64,000 bases of DNA, taken from IMG/VR virus record IMGVR_UViG_3300031688_001339; one strand, given 5' to 3'. The notes beneath the pieces are model-generated. The model ran no database searches. It was not told where the DNA came from and saw only the letters and a program-made list of their open reading frames with translations. The first letter of the stretch is position 1; every line of letters starts with the position of its first letter. Below are positions 8,384 to 26,323 of the stretch, piece after piece. The DNA comes from a virus. Both the position numbers and the translations under genes were made by a program.

Positions 8384-8384
8384 A

Positions 8385-9008
8385 CTACTCCTTGTAGTGT
8401 GCTGGTGTATCTGTTTCCAGTTTACCAATTAATAAAAATCTTGTTCCTCTATAGTCTGTTACCTTTTCTTCAGCAAGAACTGTTGCTGTATCTGGTAACT
8501 GTTTTTTAAAATCTTCTATTGTATCTACACAGTTTATATGTCCTTCAATATCATACATGTCGTTAGATGTAAAAGCAAAGTAAGAATTTATGTTACTTAA
8601 AATCTTTAAGTCTCTCATAGGTTTCATATGTTCACAAGAGGTGTTAATAATAAGTTTTGTTCTTTTAATTCTGTTAGAATCTTCAGCCCATTCAAAACAA
8701 TCTTTATTAACAAAGTCTATTTGTTTATATCCTGGATATATTCTATATTTGTTTCTACTAATAACTTGTGGATCTAAATCTATAGCAGTAATTCTTTTAA
8801 CTTCATGGTAAAAGGCAGGTATTAATATACTACCATACCAACAACCAAAAATAGCTATATCATCTTCTTTTTCTAATGGTACTAATTTCTTAATATGATC
8901 TATAAGTTTTATTTTAGTATTGAATTGGTTAGGACTTAATGAATCTAATAGATCACTATTCTCTCTAATTTCTTCCATTATATTTTTAAATAAATTTAAA
9001 TCAATCAT
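8385..9008 (-). CDS. Class I SAM-dependent methyltransferase-like protein
   Basis: IAIFGCWYG motif I, AIDLD motif II, INTSCEHM. Confidence 0.65.
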   Translation of the reverse strand: MIDLNLFKNIMEEIRENSDLLDSLSPNQFNTKIKLIDHIKKLVPLEKEDDIAIFGCWYGSILIPAFYHEVKRITAIDLDPQVISRNKYRIYPGYKQIDFVNKDCFEWAEDSNRIKRTKLIINTSCEHMKPMRDLKILSNINSYFAFTSNDMYDIEGHINCVDTIEDFKKQLPDTATVLAEEKVTDYRGTRFLLIGKLETDTPAHYKE

Positions 9009-10540
9009 TTTCTTATTATATAATCATTAATAACTAATATATCTATAGCAGTTTTCTTAAATGTTCTTAATGCATGTTCAGGAGTTTCTACAATAGGTTC
9101 TTGACAGTTAAAACTTGTATTAACTAACATAGGAACACCAGTGATCTCTCCGAACTCTCTTATAAGTTCATAGAATTTACTATTATCTTTTTTATTTACT
9201 GTTTGTATTCTAGCCGTGCCATCAACGTGAGTAACACCAGGTATTACATTTTTCATTTCTGGTTTAACTTTACATATTCTTGACATGTAAGGACTAGGTG
9301 AGTTAGTATCAAAGTATTGTTTATAGTGTTCTTCTAATACGGCTGGTGCAAATGGTCTAAAGTCTTCTCTCATTTTAACAGTACCATTAATAATATCTTT
9401 TATATCAGGATTTCTAGGATCAGCTAATATACTTCTATTACCTAATGCTCTGTTACCACTTTCTGATTTACCTTGAAACCAACCTACTATCTTGCCATCA
9501 GCAAGTGCTTGAGCAATTTCTTTATATGAAGTTAACTTTTCTTCGCCTTTGTAATAGTCATATGATTTGCCAGCATAAACGTTAGAAATATGTACATTAT
9601 TGTTTATTGTATAGTCAGCATGTTGATAAGCACCAATAGCCTGTCCTTCATCACCAATTGCAGGTGGTACATGAACGTTTTGATAGTGTTCAGTAAACAT
9701 TTCATTTACATAACCATTGTAAGCAACTCCACCAGCAAGACAAAGATGATCACAAGTTTTTAATGGATAAACATATTCCTTAATTTTTTCCATTGTAATA
9801 TGTTGTAGTGTATATGCTAAGTCATTTATACCGTGTTTGTCAATCTCTATAGATTTCCATTCTGGATACTTTCTTTCTAAAATAGGTCCTTCTAATATAG
9901 TGGTTAATACATTATAATAGTAATCACTAAATTTACCATAACCAACTTTACCCATAAGTTTACTTGCACCTAGTGTTCCGAAACCTGTAAGATTAGACAT
10001 ATGATTCCATAACCACCCGATAGGAAGTTTTGATGATAGATCAGTTGCTTTACCGTCTCTATCAAAAAATAAACATCTGTATTTTGAGCCAATGCCGTCT
10101 ATTGCAAGTACATCACTTTGTTGATAACCTGAATTTAAAAATGCATAAGCAGCATGTGATTGATGATGATCAATATAATAGATACCATCTTTATAATAAT
10201 TTTGCCATAATGTTTTAACTTCGTAGTCTAAAATCTCATCATGTCCTTTAAATATAGTTTTAAATAATTCTTCTTTTGATTTTCTTATACCACCATAAGT
10301 GTATGTAAATGCTAAAACACTGTCCTCTGGTTTTTTAAGATGTTCTTTTATAAACTGATCATTTAAAGTATAGTCACCAGGATTTAATATATCTGATTGA
10401 TGATTATATGCTTCTGCTCTGTATGGTAAGTTATGTTTAAATCTAGTATGTCTTTCTATCTGATTGTGAAAGACACCATCGTAGGTATTGTGATCGTGTA
10501 AGTTAATTGCGACTGCATTTATTTTCATTTTCTTTTCCAT
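9005..10540 (-). CDS. Carbamoyltransferase (NodU/CmcH/TobZ family)
   Basis: HHQSHAA, IDGIG, LAGGVAYN, GDEGQAIG, RALGNRSILADP, FRPFAP, HVDGTARIQTV, NTSFN. Confidence 0.92.
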   Translation of the reverse strand: MEKKMKINAVAINLHDHNTYDGVFHNQIERHTRFKHNLPYRAEAYNHQSDILNPGDYTLNDQFIKEHLKKPEDSVLAFTYTYGGIRKSKEELFKTIFKGHDEILDYEVKTLWQNYYKDGIYYIDHHQSHAAYAFLNSGYQQSDVLAIDGIGSKYRCLFFDRDGKATDLSSKLPIGWLWNHMSNLTGFGTLGASKLMGKVGYGKFSDYYYNVLTTILEGPILERKYPEWKSIEIDKHGINDLAYTLQHITMEKIKEYVYPLKTCDHLCLAGGVAYNGYVNEMFTEHYQNVHVPPAIGDEGQAIGAYQHADYTINNNVHISNVYAGKSYDYYKGEEKLTSYKEIAQALADGKIVGWFQGKSESGNRALGNRSILADPRNPDIKDIINGTVKMREDFRPFAPAVLEEHYKQYFDTNSPSPYMSRICKVKPEMKNVIPGVTHVDGTARIQTVNKKDNSKFYELIREFGEITGVPMLVNTSFNCQEPIVETPEHALRTFKKTAIDILVINDYIIRK

Positions 10541-10554
10541 TGTTATATTCGCTT

Positions 10555-10562
10555 TATTTATA
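10555..10562 (-). promoter_or_regulatory. Internal late promoter TATAAATA
   Basis: Exact consensus on the minus strand upstream of the carbamoyltransferase. Confidence 0.55.
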
Positions 10563-10956
10563 GTCCCATTAAATCTCTTATTTCAGGATCAATCATATCT
10601 CTAGACCACATAGGTGTCATTGTAATTCTGACTTTACATTTTAATCCTGGAATACTTTCAACAGCTTGTCTAACTCCATTAACTATTTCATCTACTGCTG
10701 GACAAAAAGCAGACGTTAAACTCATTAATACAAATACATATCTTTCAGAGGTAACTTTAACGTCATATATAAGTCCAAGTGTATATATGTCTGTATCAAT
10801 TTCAGGATCATAACAAGTTTTAAGTTTCTCTGTAATCTTATTAATAAACTCTAGACGCATTTCTTGGTCGTCTTTAATATCTGATAAAGTAGCGTTAACT
10901 TGTGGGTCAACCGATGGTGTAGGTTGTCTTAAATCTGGATCATCTGTTTCATTCAT
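10558..10956 (-). CDS. sufT: DUF59/SufT (MIP18-like) Fe-S cluster maturation protein
   Basis: YDPEIDTDIYTLGLIY, MSLTSAFCP, PMWSRDMI. Confidence 0.85.
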   Translation of the reverse strand: MNETDDPDLRQPTPSVDPQVNATLSDIKDDQEMRLEFINKITEKLKTCYDPEIDTDIYTLGLIYDVKVTSERYVFVLMSLTSAFCPAVDEIVNGVRQAVESIPGLKCKVRITMTPMWSRDMIDPEIRDLMGL

Positions 10957-10965
10957 AATTTACTC

Positions 10966-11805
10966 CTATACGTTCAATATGTTAGCGTACTTCTCAATAG
11001 GGAAGTGTCCCTTTGGTTGTACATACTCCTTACATGTTACACAATACTTTTCATATTTAAATAACTGGAAATTCATCATCTTGTCTACGTTTTCTTTTGT
11101 CATAGGAAACGATCTAGATAGTTCAAGATTGTTAGCAAACTTTTTACTACAGTGTACTATAGTTTTTGTTTCAAAGTTTATTACTGGTACCATTGGAAAA
11201 GCGGCACACATTTTACGATCTATTTCAGCTGCTTGTTTATGTACTTCTTCTACATCACCTTTAGTTGGTGTTCTACCATTAAATGCTTTGAACATAGTAT
11301 TTTTATGTTCTAGTTTCTTTTTAAATTCTGGATAGTTTGCTATGTATTTAAAGTAATTAGGTGTTTTAAGTACTACGTTATAGTTATTCATATCATTTGG
11401 TTCTAGATAGTCATAGTTACCTAATTTCTTTATCTCATCTGGATAAAAATCTAACGTTAAATGTTCTACATATAAAATATCTGGGTCTTTTAGTATCTCT
11501 GGGTATCTTTTTCTTATAAAAGAGTTAGATAAAACTTGGCAAATAAAATTAGGGTATTCTTTTACCATTGCAATCACTTCACGCAAGTTCTTAATTAGAC
11601 CTGGCTCTCCACCAAGTAAACATATTCTAGTCTTATAATTCTTTAAACTTTCTAACGTTTCTCTTAAAAAATCTAAATCTACTGTTAAGTTTCTCATTTC
11701 TAGAGTATAACTTGTACAGTAGTGACAATCTTTATTACAAGACATTGATAGAAAGAAATCTACAGCTAAGTAGTTCTTTTGTGCATATGTTAAATCAAAT
11801 TTCAT
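10966..11805 (-). CDS. Radical SAM protein with C-terminal Cys-rich auxiliary domain
   Basis: CNKDCHYC, LLGGEPG; C-terminal C...C...CxxC. Confidence 0.8.
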   Translation of the reverse strand: MKFDLTYAQKNYLAVDFFLSMSCNKDCHYCTSYTLEMRNLTVDLDFLRETLESLKNYKTRICLLGGEPGLIKNLREVIAMVKEYPNFICQVLSNSFIRKRYPEILKDPDILYVEHLTLDFYPDEIKKLGNYDYLEPNDMNNYNVVLKTPNYFKYIANYPEFKKKLEHKNTMFKAFNGRTPTKGDVEEVHKQAAEIDRKMCAAFPMVPVINFETKTIVHCSKKFANNLELSRSFPMTKENVDKMMNFQLFKYEKYCVTCKEYVQPKGHFPIEKYANILNV

Positions 11806-12649
11806 TTTTGTCTTCTTCTAACTGTCTATTTATCTCTAGTTCACCACCAAGAGATTTTTCTATTACCATTTCTGTAAACTTTTTATCATCATAATGCCAC
11901 ATATCCTTTGCATTTTTAAATGTCTTACTGTCTGCTGGCTGTTTTGTCACATCAACCCAATTTATCATATCTTCATATGGTGGTTTATGATCATCTTGTA
12001 CTTGATTAGTTCTTTTCATAAAATCCATTCTGTAATAGGAACCATAACCTAGTGTAACTATCATGTGTGGTGTTCTATTAACATAAGTAGTATCTTGCCA
12101 TCTAGATGGATTTTTAGGAAAACAAGAAGTAAATGAAACGTCTATACCTTTTTCTAATGCCAGGCCAACTAATGATTGAGAAAATAATCCACATTCAAAA
12201 GAAATTAAACTGTCTATTTCGCTTAATTCACTTTCAATAGTTTGTTCCGTAAAGTGACTATCATTATCTACACCCCATTGATTAAATTTATTGTTCTCAC
12301 AAAGTCTTGATTCAAATACCAAAACATATGGAGCACTTATTATATGTTGATAGTTTCTATTTACTAAATGTATTGAATCTTTTATCTTACCCTCTCTCAT
12401 GGCCCTATCTTCGGTTGCATGGTGATTAAATACTGCTTTATTCCATATCTTAATTTTTTCTGATTGATTTTCATCTCCTGGACCTATAATGTTTATCTTA
12501 TAAGGCATAAACTGTTGTTTAGAAGGAGTTACTTCATAAGCTTCTTTAATAACAGAGTTTACTTCTTCTTTAGTTGGCCATTTTTCTCTATCGTACAACC
12601 AAACTTGTTGTCTCTTATTAAGTGCTTTGTATACTGGAGATTTAGTCAT
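11795..12649 (-). CDS. Nitroreductase-fold (FMN-binding) protein
   Basis: N-terminal KRQQV, TPSKQQFMPY, SAPYVLV, ALEKGIDVSF, LGYG. Confidence 0.65.
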   Translation of the reverse strand: MTKSPVYKALNKRQQVWLYDREKWPTKEEVNSVIKEAYEVTPSKQQFMPYKINIIGPGDENQSEKIKIWNKAVFNHHATEDRAMREGKIKDSIHLVNRNYQHIISAPYVLVFESRLCENNKFNQWGVDNDSHFTEQTIESELSEIDSLISFECGLFSQSLVGLALEKGIDVSFTSCFPKNPSRWQDTTYVNRTPHMIVTLGYGSYYRMDFMKRTNQVQDDHKPPYEDMINWVDVTKQPADSKTFKNAKDMWHYDDKKFTEMVIEKSLGGELEINRQLEEDKNEI

Positions 12650-13460
12650 TTATTCCTATATTTAAATCTTGTTTACTAATGTTTAATCTTCTTTTCATTT
12701 CAGTTTTATTTTCGTCTGTAGTTCCAGATGTATCTTCAACCCAATTTATTACATCTTTAAAGTCTGCTTTTCTGTCCATATCCCAATTACTTTTACCGTT
12801 TTCGGTATCAGGACCATTTTCTTCCATCCACTGTTTCTTATAATATTTTCCATGTCCCATAGAACAAGTTAGAAGTGGTAAAGTTGTAACAAAATCTAGA
12901 TCATGCCATTTTTCTACATCTTTAGGAAAACATTGTGTATATGTAATATCAATACCTTTCTCTACTAGTAATCCTGTAAGAGAAGCTACAAACAATCCTA
13001 CTTCAACACTTGTTGCTTGTGCTAGGTTGTTTATTTGATCTTCAAATTCTGGTTCACTAAAGTGACCATCTTCAGCAATACATTTTTGATTCCATGCATT
13101 TGTTTTTCCTGGTTCAACAACTCTAGACGTAATAACTATTACATAAGGAGCGTCTGATAAATGTTGATATGTTTTATTTACTTTTTTAGGTGATTGATCT
13201 ATCTGACCTTTTGATAATGCTCTTTCTTCCACATTATGGTGGTTATGCATTGCCTTATCCCATACTTTAAGTTTTTCATCATCAAACTTTGATTCTGGAC
13301 CTAATATATTTACTTTGTAGGGATAGTAATTTTGTTTTGAGGGTGTCATATGCCAGGCTTTCCAGAGACAATCTTCTATAACTTTTTTATCTGGTATATT
13401 ATCCTTATCGTATTCTATTACGTGTTTACGTTTTAAAAACGTTTCATATATTTTTGACAT
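12642..13460 (-). CDS. Nitroreductase-fold (FMN-binding) protein, paralogue of ORF 11795
   Basis: KRKHVIEY, TPSKQNYYPY, DAPYVIV, VEKGIDITY, MGHG. Confidence 0.65.
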   Translation of the reverse strand: MSKIYETFLKRKHVIEYDKDNIPDKKVIEDCLWKAWHMTPSKQNYYPYKVNILGPESKFDDEKLKVWDKAMHNHHNVEERALSKGQIDQSPKKVNKTYQHLSDAPYVIVITSRVVEPGKTNAWNQKCIAEDGHFSEPEFEDQINNLAQATSVEVGLFVASLTGLLVEKGIDITYTQCFPKDVEKWHDLDFVTTLPLLTCSMGHGKYYKKQWMEENGPDTENGKSNWDMDRKADFKDVINWVEDTSGTTDENKTEMKRRLNISKQDLNIGIND

Positions 13461-14217: not shown

Positions 14218-14506
14218 AGAATAATTTGTTAAATGCTATTTTAAGTTTATGTTTAGGTTCTTCTTTAAAGTTCAAAGGACCGTAATCATATTCAGGCATT
14301 AAGTAAGTCTTCTCAACAATATACTCATACACTGGTTCATGTTCTTTGTCAATTAATGTTTCGTCAAAGATGTCACTAGTACCTAATGCTCTTTTCATCA
14401 TTTGACAAGTTTTAATAAGATTATGATCGGTTATAGGAACAGGATTTTCGTTACTGTCAATATAACTAATTTGATCTAATTCTGTGTTTGCTATTATTTC
14501 AATCAT
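14198..14506 (-). CDS. Hypothetical protein
   Basis: 102-aa ORF overlapping both neighbours in the operon. Confidence 0.55.
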   Translation of the reverse strand: MIEIIANTELDQISYIDSNENPVPITDHNLIKTCQMMKRALGTSDIFDETLIDKEHEPVYEYIVEKTYLMPEYDYGPLNFKEEPKHKLKIAFNKLFYEKINS

Positions 14507-15573
14507 AGGTTATTTAATATTGTATTGCATACATCTTTTACTTCTTCATCTTTCATAAATGGGTGTATTGGTAATGTTAATACAGAGCTACTAACTAGTT
14601 TACTATTTTTACAGTTATCACTTCTATGTTCTATGTTTTTATACATAGGTCTTTCCGAAATAAGTTTTTCATAATGAATATTAGCACCTAGTTTTCCTTT
14701 TATTCTATCTCTTGCCTCATTAGCTTCAACTGGATCTCCTTCATCAAATCTTATAACGTATTTATGATATGTATGATTCAGACCATTTGTTGTTTCTTGT
14801 ACAGCTACATAACCTTTTAGTTCATCATCATATTTTTTTGCTATTATTTGTTTAGCCTCAATATACTGATCTAATTTTTTTAATCTATAATCAATAAATT
14901 TTGCATTAAAGAATAACATTTTAGAATTATATCCTAGTATCTCATGGTTACCGTGTTTTCTTAACTTGATACACATATCAGCATGTTCTTTATTATCTGT
15001 TAATACAATTCCACCACCAGCAATACCACCAATAGTTTTGTTTGCATTAAAACTTATAGTACTAAAATCTCCTTGTGTACCTGCTTTTACACCATTAAGA
15101 CTTGAACCTATGGCCTGAGCTGCGTCTTCTACAAAGTATATATTTTTCTCTTTACAAAATTTTAATATTTCTGCTATATCTGTCATACTGCCAAACAAAT
15201 GTGGATAGATAATTGCTTTTACTTTATCTGAATACATTTTTTTAATACTATCAAGAGTCATATGATAAGAGTATGGGTCTATATCACAAAATACAGGTGT
15301 TGCACCTACCATAGATATACAAGACGCTGTTGATATCCAAGAGAAGTTGGTTGTTATTACTTCATCGCCTGGTTTTATACCTAGACATTTTAGAGAAAAC
15401 ATTAAGGCGTCTGTACCATTTTGACATGCTACGGCATATTTTCTACCTACTATATCTGTAACTGTTTTTTCCAGAAACTCTATGTTTTGTTCCTGATTTT
15501 CTTTCATGCATTCATCAAAGAGTTTAGTATAATTCTCTTTGTCTTCAGCATATTCATATTTCCATGCGTCCAT
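14503..15573 (-). CDS. DegT/DnrJ/EryC1/StrS PLP-dependent sugar aminotransferase
   Basis: NGTDAL, GATPVFCD, EDAAQAIG, SFNANKTIG (catalytic Lys), LTLPIHP. Confidence 0.92.
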   Translation of the reverse strand: MDAWKYEYAEDKENYTKLFDECMKENQEQNIEFLEKTVTDIVGRKYAVACQNGTDALMFSLKCLGIKPGDEVITTNFSWISTASCISMVGATPVFCDIDPYSYHMTLDSIKKMYSDKVKAIIYPHLFGSMTDIAEILKFCKEKNIYFVEDAAQAIGSSLNGVKAGTQGDFSTISFNANKTIGGIAGGGIVLTDNKEHADMCIKLRKHGNHEILGYNSKMLFFNAKFIDYRLKKLDQYIEAKQIIAKKYDDELKGYVAVQETTNGLNHTYHKYVIRFDEGDPVEANEARDRIKGKLGANIHYEKLISERPMYKNIEHRSDNCKNSKLVSSSVLTLPIHPFMKDEEVKDVCNTILNNL

Positions 15574-16551: not shown

Positions 16552-16934
16552 TACTTTGTATCTTTTTTTAATTCTTTTCCGTCTCTATATGTTGTTTCTA
16601 CCTTTATCTTATCTTCCTTTTCTCTTACCTTACAGTGGTGAATACATACACCATTGATCTTATTAAGATTATCTCCTACGTCTCTAGCTCTAACTAAATC
16701 ATTTTCAAATTCTTTCCATTCTGGTTGATCCATTAATTGTTCAACTGTATCAAAATTTTCAAGTTTACTTACATCATATATCTTTTTAAATCTTTCACTA
16801 TTAGTAACTGCCCTTTCGTCACACCAACAACAAGGTAATATGTAACCTCTATTGTTTATTGCCAATGGCATAGATATGTAATTAGGGTCGTCTGGATTAG
16901 GAAGACAACGAGGTCTTAATTTAATATTCTTCAT
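16551..16934 (-). CDS. Stand-alone SPASM/twitch-like Fe-S protein
   Basis: PRCL...AINNRGYILPCCWCD...CIHHC; paralogue of ORF 15573. Confidence 0.7.
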   Translation of the reverse strand: MKNIKLRPRCLPNPDDPNYISMPLAINNRGYILPCCWCDERAVTNSERFKKIYDVSKLENFDTVEQLMDQPEWKEFENDLVRARDVGDNLNKINGVCIHHCKVREKEDKIKVETTYRDGKELKKDTK

Positions 16935-17586
16935 ATTTCCTTCTACCTTCTAATTTATCTTTTAATGTTTGTTTATATTTACCTGTCGGTCTAAATGGAT
17001 CAGGTTTTCCGTCTCTATCTTTCCATCTGGAAGATTGTGTTAGTAGAAAATCTATTCCATTACTATTGGCCATGTTCTTAGCTTCTTCTATATCATTTTC
17101 GTTATAGTTAAATATTATGTATTGCCATATTGGTATTACTTTTAAATGTTTAACAGACTCCTTCATTATCTCAAACATTTTTTCTCCATCTTGGTTTTTT
17201 CTATACTTGTGGCTATCTTTTGGTAAACCATCACACGCAAAAGTCCATAGAGCATTTGGATTTGCTTTCCAAGATTTAATATACCATGCCATAGGTTTTG
17301 CTGTAGAGGCATTGTGTACTAAAACTTCAGGTATTTCAAGATCATGTAGTCTTTGTAGTATTTGAGGAAATTTAGGGTGGTGTATAGGGTCAGATAACTG
17401 ACCACAGAAAGTAAAAGACTTAAAGTGTATTGCTAGTTTTTCTATTTCTATCATTGTCAAGTCACGACCATGAGGTACTTTACCTCTAAATGTAAAAGCA
17501 GTTTGTCTTTGACAATTAGGACATTCAAGAGGACATCTATGGGAAGAGTCTACGTTTATCGTTGTTCTAGTTTTAAAGTATGTCAT
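16921..17586 (-). CDS. Short radical SAM core protein, paralogue of ORF 15922
   Basis: HRCPLECPNCQR, FCGQLSDPIHHP. Confidence 0.82.
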   Translation of the reverse strand: MTYFKTRTTINVDSSHRCPLECPNCQRQTAFTFRGKVPHGRDLTMIEIEKLAIHFKSFTFCGQLSDPIHHPKFPQILQRLHDLEIPEVLVHNASTAKPMAWYIKSWKANPNALWTFACDGLPKDSHKYRKNQDGEKMFEIMKESVKHLKVIPIWQYIIFNYNENDIEEAKNMANSNGIDFLLTQSSRWKDRDGKPDPFRPTGKYKQTLKDKLEGRRKYEEY

Positions 17587-18442
17587 TCATTGCCTTTATA
17601 ATTACTTCTATGTTTGGTCTATTAACTGGATCAGTAAGACAGTTGGCAGGTCTTTTGTAGTAAACAGGTCCTGCGTCTTTAATATTTTTATCTCTTACAT
17701 ATACAAAGTTCATTCCGAAGAAACGACACTCTTGCATTAATCTTGGTGCCGGATCAAATGTATGTTTAGTGTAAACGTAAGTATCAAACATACCTAGTAA
17801 ATTTTTTACAGGTACAAATATGTGATTTAGATTATGATCTATGTACTTATCTTTGTATGCCAATATACCATGATTTTGGTATTTGTGAATATGTTTCTTT
17901 AGTTCAGTGTAATAACTTTCATTTGTACCTAAAAATAGATACTTAAACTTAACATCTTTAACTATAGGTTTATATACACTGTAATTAATAATCTTTTCAA
18001 ATTGTCTACCTATGCCATTAACATATACCTCATGGTCGCATAAGTCAATTACTTTTTCTGGTTTAAAAAATTCTAGTGCTAAAGGATATTCTTTTGGGTG
18101 GTTTTCTGAATATACTGATATAAGAGGTTTCTTAAATAACAAACGTAAAGTTAATTGTGTATCTTTATCATAATCTTTGATACTCTTATATGCTAGAGTT
18201 ATCATACTTCTACCCATAATTAAATTTACATCAGCTTCTTCATAATCAAAATATACATTTTTCATATGTATATATTTTTCTGTTAAAGCTTCAATGTATG
18301 TTTCCTTGGTAAATTTGTAGTGAGGTATAATTATAAGTTTTGCGTTGATACCTAGATCATTTAGATATTGTACTTGTTCAAAGCTATAATGCATTAATCC
18401 GTCACCTGGTTTACTAGTCACCACTATATTCAATCTCATCAT
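17573..18442 (-). CDS. Hypothetical protein, possibly GT-B glycosyltransferase-like
   Basis: KYLFLGT and DPAPRLMQECRFFG resemble the GT-B C-terminal domain; the ATG at 18448 lies within the promoter, so start at 18442 or 18439 is preferred. Confidence 0.45.
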   Translation of the reverse strand: MMRLNIVVTSKPGDGLMHYSFEQVQYLNDLGINAKLIIIPHYKFTKETYIEALTEKYIHMKNVYFDYEEADVNLIMGRSMITLAYKSIKDYDKDTQLTLRLLFKKPLISVYSENHPKEYPLALEFFKPEKVIDLCDHEVYVNGIGRQFEKIINYSVYKPIVKDVKFKYLFLGTNESYYTELKKHIHKYQNHGILAYKDKYIDHNLNHIFVPVKNLLGMFDTYVYTKHTFDPAPRLMQECRFFGMNFVYVRDKNIKDAGPVYYKRPANCLTDPVNRPNIEVIIKAMNDIL

Positions 18443-18447
18443 ACGCA

Positions 18448-18468
18448 TATTTATAACACTTATAAATA
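18448..18468. promoter_or_regulatory. Back-to-back divergent late promoters (18448-18455 minus; 18461-18468 plus)
   Basis: TATTTATAA-CAC-TTATAAATA inverted repeat containing two exact TATAAATA. Confidence 0.8.
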
Positions 18469-18490
18469 ATGGATATAGAATGGAGGTCTA

Positions 18491-18646
18491 ATGACAATAA
18501 AACAAAAACATAAAGACTTAAAGACTAAAGTAATTAAAGCAGAGACAAAAAGAGAATTGAGACGAGGTCCTACAAGTTGGTTTGACCTACGTATGTTAAA
18601 GAAACTAAAATTACAAATGAAAGACAAATTAAAATTATCTAAATGA
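18491..18646 (+). CDS. 51-aa DUF465/YdcH-like coiled-coil protein (not in the ORF track)
   Basis: MTIKQKHKDLKTKVIKAETKRELRRGPTSWFDLRMLKKLKLQMKDKLKLSK; SD GGAGGT; ATGA overlap with the next gene. Confidence 0.65.
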   Translation: MTIKQKHKDLKTKVIKAETKRELRRGPTSWFDLRMLKKLKLQMKDKLKLSK

Positions 18647-19098
18647 TTAAATTTCAATATGATTTAGAAAAGATTAAGAAAGAGTTGGAATCTTTACCAG
18701 ATTATAACAAACAGTTATATCTGCAAGGTCACTCTAAAGATATGGATCCTGAAGAAGGAGCTGGCAAAGGTTATGATATAGACAGTAGCGAACACACATA
18801 TACTATTCCATTATTTGATATACCTTACATCAATAGTATAATGGAAGAACATAAACTTACTAGAACAAGATTAATGAGAATGAAACCTAAAGCATGTTAT
18901 CTTTGGCACAACGATTTAACAAAAAGATTACACATACCAATTGTTACAAATGATCATTGTTTTTTATTATTAGACAGTGATAGAATACACATACCAGCGA
19001 CAGGCGAGGCATATGTAATAGATACTACTAAATTTCATACAGCATTAAACTGCTCAAAGGAAAATCGTATTCATATTGTTGGAGGACTACCTTACTAA
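18643..19098 (+). CDS. Aspartyl/asparaginyl beta-hydroxylase-like Fe(II)/2OG cupin
   Basis: RTRLM, WHND (HxD), RLHIPIVTN, HTALN, RIHIV. Confidence 0.75.
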   Translation: MIKFQYDLEKIKKELESLPDYNKQLYLQGHSKDMDPEEGAGKGYDIDSSEHTYTIPLFDIPYINSIMEEHKLTRTRLMRMKPKACYLWHNDLTKRLHIPIVTNDHCFLLLDSDRIHIPATGEAYVIDTTKFHTALNCSKENRIHIVGGLPY

Positions 19099-20384
19099 TG
19101 TTATATGACGCTCTTATAACTTCACTACCAGGAATGGATAAAAGTAAACCTGCACCTGGTCCTTCTTTTTTAAAAGGATATTTAGAGACACAAGGATTTA
19201 AAATCAAAGTTATAGATGGCAATCAGTTAGATACTTTAGATAATATTCATAAAGAAATTGCAAAATATGATTTCAGATGGCTAGGTATATCTGTATTCTC
19301 TTATGAACAAAAAGATGACGCCTTAAAATTAGGTGAAAGATATGAAAATGTATTGTATGGTGGATCAGGTGTAGATATAGCATGGCCATCAAAATATTAT
19401 ATTACAGGAGAAGGAGAGTACGCCTTTGTAGAATTTTTAAATAACAATTTTGATTATCCTGGCATTAACGGAAAACAACCAAAACAAATAGAAGACATAG
19501 AGTCATTACCACCACCTGATTATTCAGACGTAATACAACAACATAACTATCGTAAATTTGTAATATCTGGTTCTAGAGGTTGCGTTAGAAATTGTACCTT
19601 TTGTGATGTTGCAAGTATATGGCCTAAATTTAGATGGAAGACAGGTAAGAAGATAGCAGACGAAATGCACCACGTATCAGAAACTACAGGTGGAAACAAA
19701 ATACATTTTTCAGACTCTTTAGTTAACGGATCAATGAAACACTTTAGGGATTTGTGTGCTGAGTTAGCTACTAGACCTAAAAAGATTAAATGGGAAGGAC
19801 AGTTTATCGTTAGAGCAGAAAAAACTTTCTCTAAACAGGACTTTGATAACTTAGCCAACTCTGGTTGTAATGGTTTAGAAATGGGTATAGAGGCAGGTAA
19901 TGAAGAAGTTAGAGATCATATGAAAAAGAAGTTTACCAATGAAGACATAAAATACTTTGTAACTAATTTAGGTGAACGAAATATTACAATGAAGTTTTTA
20001 CTTATTGTAGGTTATCCTACGGAAACGGAAAAAATGTTTGAAGATACTCTACAACTAATAAGAGACTATGCAAAGTATTCACATTTAATAAGTATATCAC
20101 ACCATGTTATGATGACCTTTAAAAATACACCATTAGACTTTGAACATAGAGAGTTGTTTGATAGTGAGTTTGGTTTTAAATGGAAGAATAAAAATTCAGA
20201 CTTTGATATAAGATTTCAAAGATTTATAAAAGTATATGAGTTAGGCAATGAATTAGGTTATAATTTCCAACAACATTGTATTGATAAGATAGAGAGATAC
20301 AAATCCGACAAACTTAATGAAAAAAGAAAGTCTATAGGATTTGCACACCCTAAAGCAAAGAAAACTTTACACGTTCAAAGTTAA
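19098..20384 (+). CDS. Cobalamin (B12)-binding radical SAM protein (class B methyltransferase-like)
   Basis: PAPGPSFLKGYL, LGISVFS, YGGSG, GEGE, SRGCVRNCTFC, GIEAGN, IVGYPTET. Confidence 0.85.
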   Translation: MLYDALITSLPGMDKSKPAPGPSFLKGYLETQGFKIKVIDGNQLDTLDNIHKEIAKYDFRWLGISVFSYEQKDDALKLGERYENVLYGGSGVDIAWPSKYYITGEGEYAFVEFLNNNFDYPGINGKQPKQIEDIESLPPPDYSDVIQQHNYRKFVISGSRGCVRNCTFCDVASIWPKFRWKTGKKIADEMHHVSETTGGNKIHFSDSLVNGSMKHFRDLCAELATRPKKIKWEGQFIVRAEKTFSKQDFDNLANSGCNGLEMGIEAGNEEVRDHMKKKFTNEDIKYFVTNLGERNITMKFLLIVGYPTETEKMFEDTLQLIRDYAKYSHLISISHHVMMTFKNTPLDFEHRELFDSEFGFKWKNKNSDFDIRFQRFIKVYELGNELGYNFQQHCIDKIERYKSDKLNEKRKSIGFAHPKAKKTLHVQS

Positions 20385-22165
20385 AAGTTCTTTTTTATTC
20401 CAAAGTTAAAGTTTCTACCATCTTGGTTATAACCATCTGGTCTTTCATAGTTTTCATCAAAAGCATTATTAAGTTTAGAGTATATTAAATAATCTCCAAT
20501 ATATTTTGAAACACCAAAGTCTACTGTTGTAACCTCTGATTTAGGAATAGTAGCATAAGTCACACTATCTATATCTAAATGTTCTCCATAATAATTTATA
20601 TTAGATGTTAAATTATAACCTTTGTACTCTGTATAGATACTTGTATTATTAATCCATTTTGGTTTTCTAGTTAAAGATGTTCCGTTACTTCCTTCAGAAA
20701 CTATCCAACTTGTATTATTCTTTATGATAAAATTGTTTATATCATAAGTCAATCCCATTTCAGCACCATGACGAGTAGATGTACCACTAATATTTTTTAT
20801 CGTACTGTCTTGGTAGTTTAAAAGATTTTCTATATCAATTTGAAAAATAGCTATATCAATTGATTTAAGATTAGTTTCTTCAAAATGTTTTTTATATCCT
20901 ATTTCGTAAGATTTACTTTCTTCAGGTTTTGCATTTTCATTACCTGAAAATCCGTAACCACTTGTACCATACATTTCATATAACGTAGGTGCTTTATGAC
21001 CTGTAGATATAGAACCTCTTATGCCGTTATGTTCAAAACCATATCTATGATTAGTAAAACTACCAAATCTTGATTGATCATCATATCTAATACCATAAGT
21101 TAAAAAAGTATCATTAATTAAATAGTCAATTGTTCCACTGTAACCATGTAAGTGACTTTTTTTATTAACACTTGGAACATAAGAACCAATGTTAGTGTTG
21201 AAATTAACATCTGTTATTTCATGGTCAAAGCCTGAAGTAAATGATAGATTGTCATTAACAGATTTTGTATTGTCTACATGAAAAGTTTTTACATTACTTT
21301 CATATAGGTCAGTGTCGCCAGATTTAAGATATGATCTTTTATGATCACTATTATTAAATGTAAAGTGAGTATCTTTATCAAAGTAATTAATTTGTTGGTT
21401 TTTAAAATTCCACTCACTAGTGTAAGCTAAGTTATCAGAACCAGAATTATCTAAACTAGAATCATTTTGTTTGTCTATAAAAATGGTACCTAAAGTATAA
21501 CCATTATCTAAAGTAGTTTCTGTATTAAGAAAGTAACTTCTATTATCATAAGGGTCTTTTTCCGCACCTTGAGGATAAACAGAGATACCATCACTAGTCT
21601 CATCTTCAATTCTAAAGTCTAATATAGTTTTGTGTTCTTCAAGGAATGTTCCTAATTTTATTGTTTTGTTCCATGTGTTATGAGAACCATAATCTAATGA
21701 AATTGAATTTTCATCACTAGCACAGGTTTTCATATTGATAACACCACCAATAGCTTCAGCACCATAAACTGTTCCCATAGGACCTTTTATGATTTCTATA
21801 GCACAAGTGCCTAATGTTCCGTGTTGTCCGATATCATCTGTACCACCGGTAGTTGATCTATCTTTTATTCCGATACCATTTAATGTTATTAATGTATGAT
21901 CTGAATCTGTTCCTCTGGTAAATGTAGAAGACAGTTGATTTTTAGGACCTGAAGTTACAATATTAAGTGAAGTACTTTCATTTAAATTTTCAGGACCAAT
22001 AATGTCATACGAATATGTTTTGTGTTGATGGTCGCTAGCAGTCCTTAATCCATGAATATGGAGGGTGACGACCAAGTTGCCATCATCGTCATAGTATGAT
22101 GGTTTTTCCTCATGTGCTAACGCAACGGTAGAGAAAAGAAGTATTGATAATAGTATTTTATACAT
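20381..22165 (-). CDS. TonB-dependent outer-membrane receptor, BtuB-like
   Basis: Signal peptide MYKILLSILLFSTVALA; TonB-box-like NLVVT; plug QLSSTFTRGTDSDHTLITLNG; IEIIKGPMGTVYGAEAIGGVINM; KAPTLYEMY; KPEESKSYEIG; C-terminal NAFDENYERPDGYNQDGRNF...F. Confidence 0.85.
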   Translation of the reverse strand: MYKILLSILLFSTVALAHEEKPSYYDDDGNLVVTLHIHGLRTASDHQHKTYSYDIIGPENLNESTSLNIVTSGPKNQLSSTFTRGTDSDHTLITLNGIGIKDRSTTGGTDDIGQHGTLGTCAIEIIKGPMGTVYGAEAIGGVINMKTCASDENSISLDYGSHNTWNKTIKLGTFLEEHKTILDFRIEDETSDGISVYPQGAEKDPYDNRSYFLNTETTLDNGYTLGTIFIDKQNDSSLDNSGSDNLAYTSEWNFKNQQINYFDKDTHFTFNNSDHKRSYLKSGDTDLYESNVKTFHVDNTKSVNDNLSFTSGFDHEITDVNFNTNIGSYVPSVNKKSHLHGYSGTIDYLINDTFLTYGIRYDDQSRFGSFTNHRYGFEHNGIRGSISTGHKAPTLYEMYGTSGYGFSGNENAKPEESKSYEIGYKKHFEETNLKSIDIAIFQIDIENLLNYQDSTIKNISGTSTRHGAEMGLTYDINNFIIKNNTSWIVSEGSNGTSLTRKPKWINNTSIYTEYKGYNLTSNINYYGEHLDIDSVTYATIPKSEVTTVDFGVSKYIGDYLIYSKLNNAFDENYERPDGYNQDGRNFNFGIKKNF

Positions 22166-22518
22166 AGTTTTCCAATTATTACACATATTAAAGTTGAAAC
22201 CAGTAAATTAAAATCAAATGGTATAGCCATAATATACGTTGTTAATAAATCGCCACCTGATTTATACCAGACAGCATAGTTAATAAGAACATGCCATGTC
22301 ATTACACCTACAAAAGTAGCATAGATTTCATTTTTAATAAATTTACTCGCAAGAACGAATAAGCACATACACCCATAAACAGGTATCATTAAAGAATGAA
22401 AGCCGATGAAAATATCCTTTATTAACAGAAAAGTCATTGGTAAAAGATATTGTATATAACGATTATTTGTAAGACTAGGTAATAATATAGCAATAGCAAA
22501 TAAAGGTGTCACATTCAT
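22117..22518 (-). CDS. Integral membrane protein, DUF6580/ECF S-component-like putative vitamin transporter
   Basis: Four to five hydrophobic segments; NVTPLFAIA, DIFIGFH, PVYG, INYAVW, YIMAIPF. Confidence 0.6.
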   Translation of the reverse strand: MNVTPLFAIAILLPSLTNNRYIQYLLPMTFLLIKDIFIGFHSLMIPVYGCMCLFVLASKFIKNEIYATFVGVMTWHVLINYAVWYKSGGDLLTTYIMAIPFDFNLLVSTLICVIIGKLCIKYYYQYFFSLPLR

Positions 22519-22526
22519 ATTGTATC

Positions 22527-22557
22527 TATTTATACACTATTTTAAATTAAAAGGCAA
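22527..22557 (-). promoter_or_regulatory. Promoter of the transporter unit: late TATAAATA (22527-22534) coincident with sigma70-like TTGCCT-N17-TATAAA
   Basis: Motifs read directly on the minus strand, 8 nt upstream of the ATG at 22518. Confidence 0.6.
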
Positions 22558-22568
22558 CCTTGAGGTCA

Positions 22569-22576
22569 TATAAATA
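22569..22576 (+). promoter_or_regulatory. Late promoter TATAAATA
   Basis: Exact consensus 5 nt before the ATG at 22582. Confidence 0.7.
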
Positions 22577-22581
22577 ACTGT

Positions 22582-22923
22582 ATGGCTGGAATAGCAAACT
22601 TAACTATAGACCAAGGGTCTAATTTTACATACGATTTAGAAGTAACTAATAGTGATGGTACAGATTTTGATCTTACTGGATTTACGATGGTTGCTAAAAT
22701 GTCTAAAGGTTATTCCTCTACATATCCTAGAACAGTTTTTACATGTTCAGTATCACAACCAACCGAGGGTGTCGTTACTATAAGTTTAACTGCTGATCAA
22801 ACGAAAGCTTTAAAGGCAGGTCGTCACGTATTTGACGTAGTTGCTACTCATTCGGATAGTACTGTAACTCGTTTACTAGAGGGAATTGTTATTGTAACTC
22901 CCTCTGTAGTTCTTTCTTTTTAA
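22582..22923 (+). CDS. Small virion structural protein (Ig-like, marine T4-like phages)
   Basis: ANLTIDQGSNF...ISLTADQT...RLLEGIVIVTPSV. Confidence 0.7.
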   Translation: MAGIANLTIDQGSNFTYDLEVTNSDGTDFDLTGFTMVAKMSKGYSSTYPRTVFTCSVSQPTEGVVTISLTADQTKALKAGRHVFDVVATHSDSTVTRLLEGIVIVTPSVVLSF

Positions 22924-24296
22924 GATTTAACAGGAGTTTTATTATACTCAAACGTTGCTTTGTTATCGCCTTTTTGTGCTAGACCAAAACCAGCTTTAGT
23001 CATAAATTGAAGTAACATATTCCAATTTAAACCAGATATATCGTCAAAAACCCAAATTGTTTGATCGGCTTTTCTTTCATTGAAGAAAACAGCTTCTTTT
23101 ATTACACTAGCAGTATCGTGAGGACCATCAAAGTGTATCATTTCATATTTGTCTAACATGATTTTATTTTCTTCGTAGATAGGAAAACCATCTTTGAATC
23201 TATTCATAAACTCTGTATCTTCTAAATTAATTAAATGAAACTCTGGATAATATTGAGCAAAGTTACCTAGTGCTTTTTGTCTCATTTTATTATCATAGTT
23301 GAATTTTTTTAAAACACCTTCGGAAGCTGCATAGTCAATATTACCATATGGATCTACACCTAAATGATTAGCTCTAACAGTTGGGTGATAATGTCTGTAT
23401 GCGTCCATAATAGTTTTACTTCCTAAACCTAATCTAACACCAATCTCCATACTTACACCTATAGGATTTCTTAACATTTTTACAGCTGTAGCTAAACTTC
23501 CATACTCTATACTATCGCCAGTGAAAATATCTCCTTCATTTACTTCTAATGAATACTTTCCAGTTACAGGATCAATACCTGGTGCTGTTCTAGCAACATC
23601 TTTAGCAGTTTTATCAAAAGGTTCTTCAACTGTCATAGTACCTGTCATTGGTGTCATTGGTGCCTGCTCTACAGCAAACATATCAACACCTTTATTAATT
23701 TGACCTACTGTGAAAGTACTATCACCTGTATGATCACAACGTATTGTTGTATCTGCCCATAATTCAAAACCTAGATTGCCTGCTTTTCTACAGAAATCAA
23801 CATCTTCGGATATTGTATTAGAATGATCAAGTGCTGAGTGATAAGTGAATTGAGGATAACCTACATCTTTTAAAACTTTTCCTTTTATAAGAACACAACC
23901 TAAACCACAAGCTGCAATTTTTATAAACGGAGTATCTTTACATTCTTCAAAAGTTATACGTTCATTTCCACCACCCTCTGGTCTTTTTTTATAAATTTCT
24001 AGTTTATGAGTGCCTTGTATTCTTTGAATATAAAGACCTGATACCATATCTTTGTCATGTTTGATCATTTTCTCTAACGTATCTGAAGCAAAAGATATAT
24101 CACTATCTACAGAAAACAAATAATCATAATGTTGACCCCATTCAGCAATTAAATTTCTTATTTGATCTACTTGATAACCAAAAAAGAATTGAAATTCAGT
24201 TGTATATCCTTCTGGTACTTTTAAATCATAAATTGCTTTGAACGTTGATGGTTCAATAAACTTGTTTGTTGGTATTGCTATCAGTATTTTTTTCAT
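22920..24296 (-). CDS. GT-A glycosyltransferase fused to a class I methyltransferase domain
   Basis: LFSVDSDI, GLGCVLIK, SEDVDFC; then MEIGVRLG, GVDPYG, HFDGPH. Confidence 0.78.
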   Translation of the reverse strand: MKKILIAIPTNKFIEPSTFKAIYDLKVPEGYTTEFQFFFGYQVDQIRNLIAEWGQHYDYLFSVDSDISFASDTLEKMIKHDKDMVSGLYIQRIQGTHKLEIYKKRPEGGGNERITFEECKDTPFIKIAACGLGCVLIKGKVLKDVGYPQFTYHSALDHSNTISEDVDFCRKAGNLGFELWADTTIRCDHTGDSTFTVGQINKGVDMFAVEQAPMTPMTGTMTVEEPFDKTAKDVARTAPGIDPVTGKYSLEVNEGDIFTGDSIEYGSLATAVKMLRNPIGVSMEIGVRLGLGSKTIMDAYRHYHPTVRANHLGVDPYGNIDYAASEGVLKKFNYDNKMRQKALGNFAQYYPEFHLINLEDTEFMNRFKDGFPIYEENKIMLDKYEMIHFDGPHDTASVIKEAVFFNERKADQTIWVFDDISGLNWNMLLQFMTKAGFGLAQKGDNKATFEYNKTPVKS

Positions 24297-26323
24297 TGTG
24301 TTATTATCCTATTTGCGTTTTTTGTTTGTTCGTTAGAGTTAATTTTATAGTCGTTTAGTGGATTTATATCGTTATAGTTATACACTACATCTGATACTAC
24401 TTTTACCTTGTCGGGATCACACTGCTCAATGAGTGTATAAAATATAGAACCATCGCCACCAGCTTTGTACCAATTTTTGTTTTCGTCTTGGAAGTTACTA
24501 TAATCTACGCCATCTAAAAGTTTTGCTTTGAAAGTTCTTAAATGTGTGTATGGCATATTCCAATTAAATTTATATTCTCTGTATTTCTTTTGTTTTTTTA
24601 TTTCATCTGGATAAGGTTGTGCTACTAAAGGTATTTTATCTACCATAGACCAACATGACCCATAAGAAAATTCTGTAGTGCCGTCATAAAGATTATTATA
24701 AAAGTGAAGTATCTGATTGTTATTAACTAGAGAGTCATCGCCATCTAGGAACATTACTATATCATCTTTATCACAATATTTCTTTATAGATTCTATTTGA
24801 TTACAAACAGCACCTTTGTTTACTTCATTTCTAATTACTTTAATATTTTCACTTTCATATTGTTTTGCAATTGAATATGTATTATCAGTGGAACAATCAT
24901 CAATTACTACCATTAAGTAGTTATCATAATCTTGTGTTACAACTGATCTAATACAGTTCTCTATATAGTTAGCCGAATTATAAGTCGGTGAGATTATAAC
25001 TATTCTTTGTTCTTTTTTTCTAGGTAAATAATTTTCTTCTTCATTTGTAAATCTTCTACCAAATACCGTTCTATGTCTGGAGTTTATATAACTTACCTTT
25101 CTATATTCTTCTTTAGATAAGTAATCTCCTAATTTATAAAGTATATGTTGTTTCCATTGTAAAGCTACTGAATCCCAACCAACAATACCTTTTATAAGAT
25201 TACAAGCATATTGTTTTTGTTGATGTAAATATCTATTATGATGAGACATCAAAACTGCATTGACAAATTTTTCTACTTGATGTGGTTGATTAATAAATTG
25301 AAATAAATTGTTTGGTTCAATTGCATAATCTATAAGATAACAAGCTTCTTGTACTGCTGTTTCTTCTAAAGCACCAAAACGTGTGGCGATTACAGGAGTA
25401 TTATATGCTAATGCTTCTAAAGTTGATATGCCAAATGTTTCAGGAAAGGCACCTGGAAATAATTTAAAACTTGCTCTTTCTAATATTTCTGCTATTTCTG
25501 ATTGTTTAATAATACCTGTAAATTCTATACCAAGCATTTTGTTTTTAGGATCACTAGACATTTTAGTCCATTCTTCTCCTTGAGCATCCATCTTTTTGCC
25601 TGGAAAAACATAAAATCCACCAATGCATATTAATTTTGCCTCTGGTATCTTTGCCTTAATTTTTGGCCATATATCGTTAACTAGAGGTGCCATACCTTTC
25701 GTGAAAGCTGCATTAAAAACGTATAGATGAGGATCTTTTTTTCTTATGTCAACATCATTTTTATAAGTTACTATACCATTTCTAGTTTGAAAGAATTTCT
25801 TTTTTAAAACTTCAAAATTTCTTCTTTTACCATGATCACAGTTAGTTACATAAGTTGAGTGAAAATCAGATAGAGTAAATACTTCATCTATATGTCCACC
25901 TACAACCAAGTCTTCCAAATAAATATCTCCGTTTGCAAACGTATCGTGCATCCATACTATTTTATGTTTTGCATAATTTTTTATTGCAGAATATCTTTGA
26001 GGATTGTATTGAGCAAACTGATTATACATGTTAGGTGTTAAGAAAGGAATTATTGTTCTTAATGATATTACAACATCAAATTTAAAATCACTCTTATAAT
26101 CAAGTATAGAGTTGTCTAGATATTGAACACCATCATAGTTTCCTTCTTTTGCAAGATTAGGATCTTTTGAACAGTTATTGAAGATTGTTACTTTAAAACC
26201 TAGTTTGGCAAGGTTTTTAGCCATTAATATTGTCGCTGATTCGGATCCACCGAGACCTCTTTTCTTTAAAGTATCTCCATCGTATGGTAACCCTATTATA
26301 TCTAAAAATGCTATGGTTGTCAT
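24293..26323 (-). CDS. GT-B (GT4-like) plus GT2 fusion glycosyltransferase
   Basis: LGGSESA, WMHD, ETFGISTLEALA; then SPTYN, IDDCSTD, FLDGDD. Confidence 0.88.
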   Translation of the reverse strand: MTTIAFLDIIGLPYDGDTLKKRGLGGSESATILMAKNLAKLGFKVTIFNNCSKDPNLAKEGNYDGVQYLDNSILDYKSDFKFDVVISLRTIIPFLTPNMYNQFAQYNPQRYSAIKNYAKHKIVWMHDTFANGDIYLEDLVVGGHIDEVFTLSDFHSTYVTNCDHGKRRNFEVLKKKFFQTRNGIVTYKNDVDIRKKDPHLYVFNAAFTKGMAPLVNDIWPKIKAKIPEAKLICIGGFYVFPGKKMDAQGEEWTKMSSDPKNKMLGIEFTGIIKQSEIAEILERASFKLFPGAFPETFGISTLEALAYNTPVIATRFGALEETAVQEACYLIDYAIEPNNLFQFINQPHQVEKFVNAVLMSHHNRYLHQQKQYACNLIKGIVGWDSVALQWKQHILYKLGDYLSKEEYRKVSYINSRHRTVFGRRFTNEEENYLPRKKEQRIVIISPTYNSANYIENCIRSVVTQDYDNYLMVVIDDCSTDNTYSIAKQYESENIKVIRNEVNKGAVCNQIESIKKYCDKDDIVMFLDGDDSLVNNNQILHFYNNLYDGTTEFSYGSCWSMVDKIPLVAQPYPDEIKKQKKYREYKFNWNMPYTHLRTFKAKLLDGVDYSNFQDENKNWYKAGGDGSIFYTLIEQCDPDKVKVVSDVVYNYNDINPLNDYKINSNEQTKNANRIITQ

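Follow-up and report, generated by a model that had tools for sequence, protein, structure and literature searches.

A probable host-derived corrinoid uptake module convergent with a radical SAM gene in a T4-like phage of SAR11

The DNA analysed here is a stretch of 64,000 nt from the IMG/VR virus record IMGVR_UViG_3300031688_001339 (hereafter the window), and the element of interest is a pair of minus-strand genes for a TonB-dependent receptor and a small membrane protein, lying tail-to-tail with a radical S-adenosylmethionine (SAM) gene. Four open reading frames (ORFs) make up the locus. On the plus strand, a 151 aa cupin resembling Asp/Asn beta-hydroxylases (P0004, 18643-19098; Pfam PF05118, 7.2e-9) is followed by a 428 aa radical SAM protein (P0003, 19098-20384) with an N-terminal Rossmann-like domain of the B12-binding type, the final codons of the first gene overlapping the start of the second (ATGA). 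The minus strand carries the gene of a BtuB-like TonB-dependent receptor (P0001, 20381-22186) and, upstream of it, that of a 133 aa DUF6580 membrane protein (P0002, 22117-22518; Pfam PF20221, 1.2e-15), a short form with five helices. The receptor and radical SAM genes converge, and their stop codons overlap in a single TTAA at 20381-20384. The four ORFs, the minus-strand pair and the stop overlap are as given in a preliminary description of this locus, which was made from the DNA letters. The longest receptor ORF is 601 aa; a signal-peptide-like segment begins at Met8 (MYKILLSILLFSTVALA), so the start is most likely at 22165 and not at 22186, giving a protein of 594 aa. With this start, the receptor ORF shares about 49 nt with that of DUF6580.

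A match to the T4-type late-promoter consensus, TATAAATA, is found on the minus strand at 22527-22534, only 8 nt before the ATG of the DUF6580 gene, so that the implied mRNA would be almost leaderless. The window holds 19 copies of this motif compared with 14.5 expected by chance, that is, no overall enrichment, and most of the copies are directly upstream of genes on the coding strand, structural genes among them. The pair had been credited with its own late promoter. The motif is indeed there, and a promoter role for it is a reasonable but unproven reading of a motif match, given the absence of enrichment and the nearly leaderless transcript.

The receptor has a full-length plug and barrel (Pfam Plug, 3.7e-9; TonB_dep_Rec_b-barrel, 3.5e-22). 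Among the NCBIfam models, TIGR01779, a BtuB equivalog, scores best (4.8e-47, model positions 67-610 of 614), ahead of a second BtuB equivalog, NF007926 (2.7e-33), with the next family at 3.9e-19. Its best relative in the PDB is E. coli BtuB (5.8e-22, residues 73-595). Besides the signal-peptide-like start, the sequence contains a TonB-box-like strand (NLVVT), the plug motif QLSSTFTRGT and a C-terminal Phe. These features, and the wide margin by which the BtuB models come first, bear out the earlier view of a complete, BtuB-like receptor. P0001 is therefore predicted, from its sequence, to be a corrinoid receptor of the outer membrane, and presumably a transporting one.

The DUF6580 protein matches PF20221 with 58.5 bits (cut-off 27) over profile positions 27-146 of 162. 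An AlphaFold2 model of it has a predicted local distance difference test score (pLDDT) of 95.3. In an exhaustive structural comparison, the top match of the model was BtuM with hydroxycobalamin (8ovv_A), with a Z score of 12.1 and a root-mean-square deviation of 2.4 A over 125 of 133 residues; Z scores below about 13 are common among helical bundles, so this match is to be taken with caution. The nine matches that follow BtuM are S-components of energy-coupling factor (ECF) transporters or related transporter subunits, and of the first 14 after BtuM most are ECF S-components. A Foldseek search of the model against the PDB returned nothing at E values up to 0.001, with S-components among the weak rows only. 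The family profile, built from 101 members, has a single match in the PDB, the 182 aa membrane chain of 6FNP (6fnp_A; 5.8e-4, 156 positions), which, judged by its size, should be CbrT, the S-component of the ECF-CbrT vitamin B12 transporter. The proposal that the small membrane protein resembles S-components, and BtuM in particular, is thus supported by the predicted structure.

Gene context points the same protein family towards cobalamin. Among cellular DUF6580 loci outside SAR11, 6 of 18 have a Cobalamin riboswitch within 4 kb, and some are ordered riboswitch, receptor, DUF6580. In Pseudothioglobus (SUP05 group), the DUF6580 gene (L113:3953-4567) follows a gene with a DUF4430 domain (L113:3553-3945), which we take to be a transcobalamin-like domain; if so, this neighbour is a further hint of corrinoid handling by DUF6580. 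With riboswitch linkage in several phyla and a BtuM-like predicted fold, the DUF6580 proteins are promising candidates for a new family that moves B12 across the inner membrane.

The window belongs to a T4-like pelagimyophage, a phage of SAR11. It encodes a large terminase, tail sheath, portal, major capsid protein and collagen-like fibres, and the major capsid protein shares 87.5% identity with its counterpart in Pelagibacter phage Mosig, compared with 74% for the Melnitz methylophages and 71% for HTVC008M; the phage nature of the element, assumed from the start, is clear from these genes. T4-like structural genes lie on both sides of the unit, which has the attributes of host-derived auxiliary genes of a phage. 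The unit itself sits in a long variable block, about 3.4-26.3 kb and mostly on the minus strand, with tail fibre and glycosyltransferase genes in its surroundings. This block corresponds to the host recognition cluster of pelagimyophages, a hypervariable region known for glycosyltransferases and radical SAM cassettes (PMC7029224).

Among 81 sampled Pelagibacteraceae genomes, 21 encode exactly one TonB-dependent receptor each, and the other three quarters none; these tallies, and those given below for the 81 genomes, include G055 (unpublished), which has no receptor, no B12-binding match and one ExbD-family match. At the 19 chromosomal receptor loci of SAR11, a DUF6580 gene is directly downstream in 18 and an AdoCbl-II-like riboswitch directly upstream in 16, and some of these loci stand beside rRNA operons. 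When eight of the loci were scanned with Rfam, the riboswitch was found in seven, at 72-98 bits against a threshold of 36.5. The transport operon also adjoins one or more B12-binding radical SAM genes (L158-L165, L168-L178), and at one locus (L158) a B12-type radical SAM gene is convergent with the operon, the gene ends abutting. B12-binding domains are present in 19 of the 21 receptor genomes and in 8 of the 60 others (Fisher p 2e-10, uncorrected for relatedness). A compact island of AdoCbl-II riboswitch, receptor, DUF6580 gene and B12-binding radical SAM gene(s) is found in about a quarter of the sampled SAR11 genomes.

Relatives of the phage receptor are encoded on 180 IMG/VR contigs. A search for the receptor family gave about 90 sequence clusters (P0005-P0094) at 35-97% identity, all but three of them near full length, after which identity drops sharply to 27%. 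Their surroundings are viral, with baseplate modules, terminase/UvsX/UvsW neighbourhoods and replication genes. In the phages, a DUF6580 gene adjoins the receptor gene at about 50 of 85 loci, and whether it precedes or follows the receptor gene depends on the lineage. In 13 phage loci, including the earliest-branching phage group, an AdoCbl-II riboswitch was detected upstream of the pair by nhmmer. Rfam confirmed three of them, with 72-85 bits (L008:5212-5290, plus strand; L082:9327-9419; L084:3034-3120); further contigs with nhmmer matches are L058, L081, L046/L048, L065, L075 and L055/L064/L087. Among isolated phages in the collection (e.g., Mosig, HTVC008M and Melnitz), tblastn found none of the three genes; matches of the three proteins were limited to remote radical SAMs and to bacterial records wrongly filed as phages. 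Likewise, a nucleotide search with window positions 18000-24000 gave no match to isolated phages.

A different regulatory arrangement is seen in one phage sub-lineage, where a glutamine riboswitch is upstream of the receptor-DUF6580 pair and a 'freshwater-2' RNA motif just downstream (L059:8906-8953 and 11710-11784; L066:9431-9478 and 12228-12307).

Receptor trees (FastTree, n=89; IQ-TREE, n=41; outgroup Salmonella BtuB) place all phage receptors in one clade (support 99 and 97, respectively), which is sister to one of two SAR11 receptor clades (support 100 and 99). The other SAR11 clade and a SAR116 sequence come next, and cellular receptors branch outside these, some of them accompanied by a Cobalamin riboswitch and btuFCD-like genes. 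The nearest cellular receptor beyond the SAR11-related clade, at 27% identity, has a Cobalamin riboswitch before it and btuFCD-like genes after it. The phage receptor therefore groups with riboswitch-controlled SAR11 receptors, and riboswitches in both SAR11 hosts and phage relatives tie the pair to cobalamin, the cofactor already proposed for it from the letters. Taken together, the host operon, the phylogeny, the phage relatives and the evidence on DUF6580 show that the phage pair is a host-derived copy of a SAR11 operon, probably for corrinoid uptake, and no invention of the phage. The genomic context gives good support to a role of this pair in B12 transport.

The radical SAM protein at the other side of the junction has the radical SAM core (1.7e-19), and the cysteines of its CxxxCxxC motif (C162, C166 and C169) are invariant in 31 homologues. 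Its model (pLDDT 86.6) matches over its full length the cobalamin-dependent enzymes MgmA, TsrM and OxsB (1e-15 to 1e-14), and CysS and TokK (to 1e-11), and homologues at about 72% identity have a precomputed PF02310 (B12-binding) match on record. P0003 thus has the class-B architecture, and on these fold and family matches it likely uses cobalamin. The tail-to-tail arrangement is conserved: in 21 of 26 viral contigs with a close homologue of P0003, a BtuB-like receptor gene lies at the same junction, and the cupin hydroxylase gene is directly upstream of the radical SAM gene in 23 of the 26, with two of the other three cut at that end. This linkage in phages, together with the SAR11 neighbourhood, shows that a coupling of B12 import with B12 radical SAMs recurs in host and phage, and it is the strongest support for the idea that the one supplies the other.

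On balance we favour, with moderate confidence, the view that the unit is a host-derived corrinoid (vitamin B12) uptake module of a T4-like SAR11 phage, the cofactor being most plausibly meant for the convergent radical SAM protein. The receptor would be exported by way of its signal peptide to the host outer membrane and capture corrinoid there, and the DUF6580 protein, which has five helices and is related to ECF S-components and BtuM, would carry it across the inner membrane; being placed in different membranes, the two proteins are not expected to touch. The riboswitch is absent from this phage lineage, where the pair lies behind a late-promoter-like motif, so that it would be made whatever the B12 status of the cell. 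The imported cofactor would then most plausibly serve the class-B radical SAM protein next door; the chances that the transport pair supplies this adjacent enzyme are about even.

A number of observations weigh against this reading, and they concern each of its parts. The receptor is far under both BtuB equivalog cut-offs, at 160.8 versus 599.7 bits for TIGR01779 and 115.4 versus 836 for NF007926; the riboswitch-linked receptors of SAR11 score similarly low on the BtuB equivalog (138-186 bits). No riboswitch is present in the window, and the intergenic space at the unit measures only 63 nt. P0002 is without the first 26-35 or so residues of the cellular DUF6580 family, which make up a first helix that is present in the SAR11 forms, in the riboswitch-bearing phage forms and in most of about 2,300 homologues. 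The short form (128-143 aa) begins at a conserved N-x-T-P motif and is kept at 60-99% identity over many contigs, a conservation which suggests that it is probably functional. Searched against the PDB, the P0002 sequence gave nothing at E values up to 10, hence no detectable similarity to BtuM, and in the 101-sequence DUF6580 alignment neither Cys nor His reaches 90% conservation at any position. A cobalt-binding cysteine has a role in the function of BtuM. For P0003, the match of its own sequence to the B12-binding domain PF02310 (3.3e-4, 20.9 bits) is under the cut-off of 32.1, and its fold also matches AprD4 and MiaB, which have the same two-domain layout and, to our knowledge, do not use cobalamin. 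The earlier label of a B12-dependent radical SAM is accordingly sound as to architecture, with cobalamin binding a likely property of the protein.

The distribution of the genes belongs on the same side. On most of the approximately 180 phage contigs with a receptor gene, no P0003-like gene lies within 10 kb, and 15 of the 21 receptors linked to the radical SAM are a short allele of about 535 aa without an adjoining DUF6580 gene. Co-occurrence of transporter and enzyme, which had been suggested as a check, is consequently seen when starting from the radical SAM and not when starting from the receptor, so the link is real but one-sided, and the claim that the phage feeds its own enzyme could apply at best to this sub-lineage. 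An alternative, which we regard as unlikely though stronger than the others considered below, is that corrinoid is imported for the B12 metabolism of the host or for other phage enzymes, with the adjacency to the radical SAM inherited from the host island. In that island, B12 radical SAM genes already neighbour the transport operon, to the radical SAMs encoded there P0003 has only a distant relationship (best match 3.5e-13), and two of five other, larger receptor-bearing phage records encode another B12-binding-domain protein above the Pfam cut-off. Class II (B12-dependent) ribonucleotide reductase was considered as a B12 consumer in other receptor-bearing phage records and rejected, as the matches are far under the NrdJ cut-off. 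What speaks for the adjacent enzyme as recipient is that the tail-to-tail junction with its overlapping stops has been kept despite three very different receptor alleles, which argues for selection on the linkage itself.

How the receptor would be powered bears on all of these readings, and here too the searches run counter to the favoured one. In the 81 SAR11 genomes no TonB_C domain was found, the control genomes being positive, and most of the 81 have one ExbD/TolR-family gene whether or not they have a receptor. No TolQ-, TolR- or TolA-like ORF was detected in the window by phmmer, the TonB and ExbB/ExbD models not having been run there. A search of SAR11 with TonB_2 (PF13103) gave few matches, probably TolA, and none in the control genomes. 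The suggestion that the host would energise the receptor through TonB hence has no visible basis, while the TonB-box-like strand is kept in position across phage and SAR11 receptors. Candidate power sources are cross-talk with the Tol system, a divergent TonB or something else, and the same question applies to the host gene. A bolder scenario is that the phage grants the SAR11 cell a cofactor route it does not have, so that B12 radical chemistry runs only in the infected cell, with a receptor that works free of TonB by way of Tol or some unknown coupling. We consider this scenario rather improbable; if true, it would represent a new way of energising a transporter of the TonB-dependent type, common to SAR11 and its phages.

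Comparison of closely related contigs reveals that the receptor gene has a history different from that of its neighbours. Between the window and contig L023 (= L004), the flanking DNA is 80-90% identical and the receptor ORF 50-65%, with sharp edges. The corresponding protein identities are 92% for the hydroxylase, 88% for the radical SAM, 88.5% for the DUF6580 protein and 46% for the receptor. Between L023 and L028 the pattern is reversed, with 65%, 71% and 67% for the same three proteins and 83.5% for the receptor. Receptor residues 1-16, which fall in the overlap with the DUF6580 gene, are identical in the window and L023, and divergence begins straight after. It follows that recombination exchanged only the receptor ORF between otherwise near-identical loci. 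A third allele, of about 535 aa and 26% identical, occupies the same tail-to-tail place in 15 contigs with no DUF6580 gene nearby (L184:7275-8888, minus strand; 14 similar in L182, L190-L193, L195-L201 and L203-L205), and it is still BtuB-like in plug and C-terminus. Such swaps are consistent with diversifying or frequency-dependent selection on an exposed outer-membrane protein; adaptation to different host envelopes, or to different corrinoids, could also account for them.

This raises a second alternative, namely that the receptor is mainly a surface protein, serving envelope remodelling, phage exclusion or decoy, or matching of the host envelope, or else that in this riboswitch-less lineage it imports a ligand other than a corrinoid. 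The exchange of the receptor ORF on its own, its position next to tail fibre and glycosyltransferase genes within the hypervariable host recognition cluster (PMC7029224), and the lack of a visible TonB partner, in the SAR11 genomes searched and among Tol-like ORFs sought in the window, are in keeping with it. Against this, conservation between the alleles extends to the plug, the TonB-box-like strand and the C-terminal motifs, the transporter-fold inner-membrane partner and the cobalamin riboswitches of relatives fit transport, and allele swapping is also expected of an exposed transporter that other phages target. We hold this alternative to be improbable, a little more so than any above. That the genes are recently acquired passenger DNA from the host island, useless to the phage, is most improbable, since the plastic island, the N-terminally shortened DUF6580 protein and the want of a known energiser are outweighed by the numerous intact relatives on viral contigs, the conservation of the short DUF6580 form, an old and diversified phage receptor clade, and gene overlaps and a phage-type promoter motif that indicate integration into the phage programme.

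Corrinoid uptake with supply of the convergent enzyme thus remains our preferred interpretation, and other genes of the same island may bear on what that enzyme acts upon. All on the minus strand, these include a GT8 glycosyltransferase (7529-8428), a carbamoyltransferase (9005-10540), a DegT/PseC-type sugar aminotransferase (14503-15573) and a large glycosyltransferase fusion (24293-26323), which suggest a sugar-modification pathway and a possible source of the substrate of P0003; that the island serves sugar or glycan modification is a guess. Three further radical SAM genes are present at 5460-6746, 10966-11805 and 16921-17586, the last with a Pfam score of 22.9 bits, under the gathering cut-off of 29.5. 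One of the three is of the twitch-domain type (NF033640, 297 bits). A SufT/DUF59-like Fe-S assembly protein is encoded at 10558-10956. With these further radical SAMs and the SufT/DUF59-like protein, the phage invests heavily in radical chemistry.

The nitroreductase-fold paralogues (11795-13460) were considered as BluB-like and set aside, as NCBIfam gives no BluB match; a match of theirs to the CobY model is weak and partial (3.8e-5, 23 bits against a cut-off of 250) and was not trusted. A second nominally cobalamin-related gene of the window codes for a CobS-like AAA ATPase (60879-62099, plus strand; phrog_249 'porphyrin biosynthesis', 9.9e-118), and CobS and CobT are on the list of auxiliary genes for both pelagimyophages and cyanomyophages in Table S5 of Zaragoza-Solas et al. 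2020 (PMC7029224). Elsewhere in this lytic phage genome, a 446 aa protein (57035-58375, plus strand) matches the domain of the Druantia defence protein DruA (Pfam PF14236, 1.2e-15), and one of the receptor-bearing phage contigs has a permuted transfer-messenger RNA of alphaproteobacterial type (L086:19516-19938) as well as a block of tRNA genes.

The preliminary description knew of no lytic phage with such a unit. That no longer holds for the receptor, which has relatives on some 180 IMG/VR contigs and was catalogued in 2020, when Table S5 listed a 'TonB-dependent vitamin B12 receptor' as an auxiliary gene of pelagimyophages and not of cyanomyophages (Zaragoza-Solas et al. 2020, PMC7029224). 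The present unit is therefore not a wholly new discovery, the pelagimyophage receptor having already been catalogued by name. In that paper no mention was found of a DUF6580 partner, a riboswitch, a host operon, a link to a radical SAM or allele replacement. Full-text searches of the literature found no paper describing B12 import by phages, no report of phage-encoded cobalamin riboswitches and no paper discussing DUF6580. The novel elements are the partner protein with its fold, the connection to a host operon and its riboswitch, the phage-borne riboswitches, the linkage to a class-B radical SAM, the receptor swap and the missing TonB.

In the surface ocean, where vitamin B12 is scarce, SAR11 is the most abundant bacterium. 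If abundant phages of SAR11 carry B12 uptake genes, infection would alter who takes up B12, and when. If the preferred interpretation is true, the phage supplies both an enzyme and the import route for the cofactor of that enzyme. The precision with which single receptor genes are swapped suggests selection on the receptor as an exposed surface protein, and with no TonB found in SAR11, the powering of this receptor becomes a testable lead. The island in the host genomes bears on whether the btuB gene of SAR11 responds to B12, a question raised previously (PMC9296465).

Among known systems, the BtuB of E. coli and Salmonella (TIGR01779, NF007926; PDB 1NQE) is like the phage receptor in its plug and barrel and in size (about 594 aa). 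The TonB-box-like strand of P0001 resembles the DTLVVTA of BtuB, and plug and C-terminal motifs are common to both. They differ in that identity to Salmonella btuB is only about 24% (tblastn), with the equivalog cut-offs far from reached, in the inner-membrane partner, which is BtuFCD for the enterobacterial receptor and DUF6580 for that of the phage, and in the setting, as no TonB was found in the host group of the phage receptor. With BtuM (PDB 8OVV), P0002 shares the same small helical membrane fold, but not sequence likeness or a family-conserved Cys, and it has five helices whereas S-components have six. CbrT (PDB 6FNP) is the only PDB sequence match of the DUF6580 profile. On its own, without the ECF module, CbrT did not give B12-dependent growth (PMC5997447).

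The SAR11 operon has the same two adjoining protein families as the phage unit and likewise lies next to a radical SAM gene of the B12 type. In the phage window, by contrast, a late-promoter-like motif is found and no riboswitch, the gene order is reversed with DUF6580 first, the DUF6580 protein is without its first helix, and the radical SAM is only a distant relative of those in the host. The closest precedent in phages is that of Zaragoza-Solas et al. 2020 (PMC7029224), which concerns the same phage group, the same genome region and the same receptor annotation, given as a name only. A broader parallel is offered by PstS and similar proteins of cyanophages and pelagimyophages (PMC12379486), likewise host-derived uptake components that lytic marine phages carry against a nutrient limit. 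The unit described here differs from phage PstS in having components for both the outer and the inner membrane, and in that the nutrient would be a cofactor linked to a phage enzyme rather than a bulk element.

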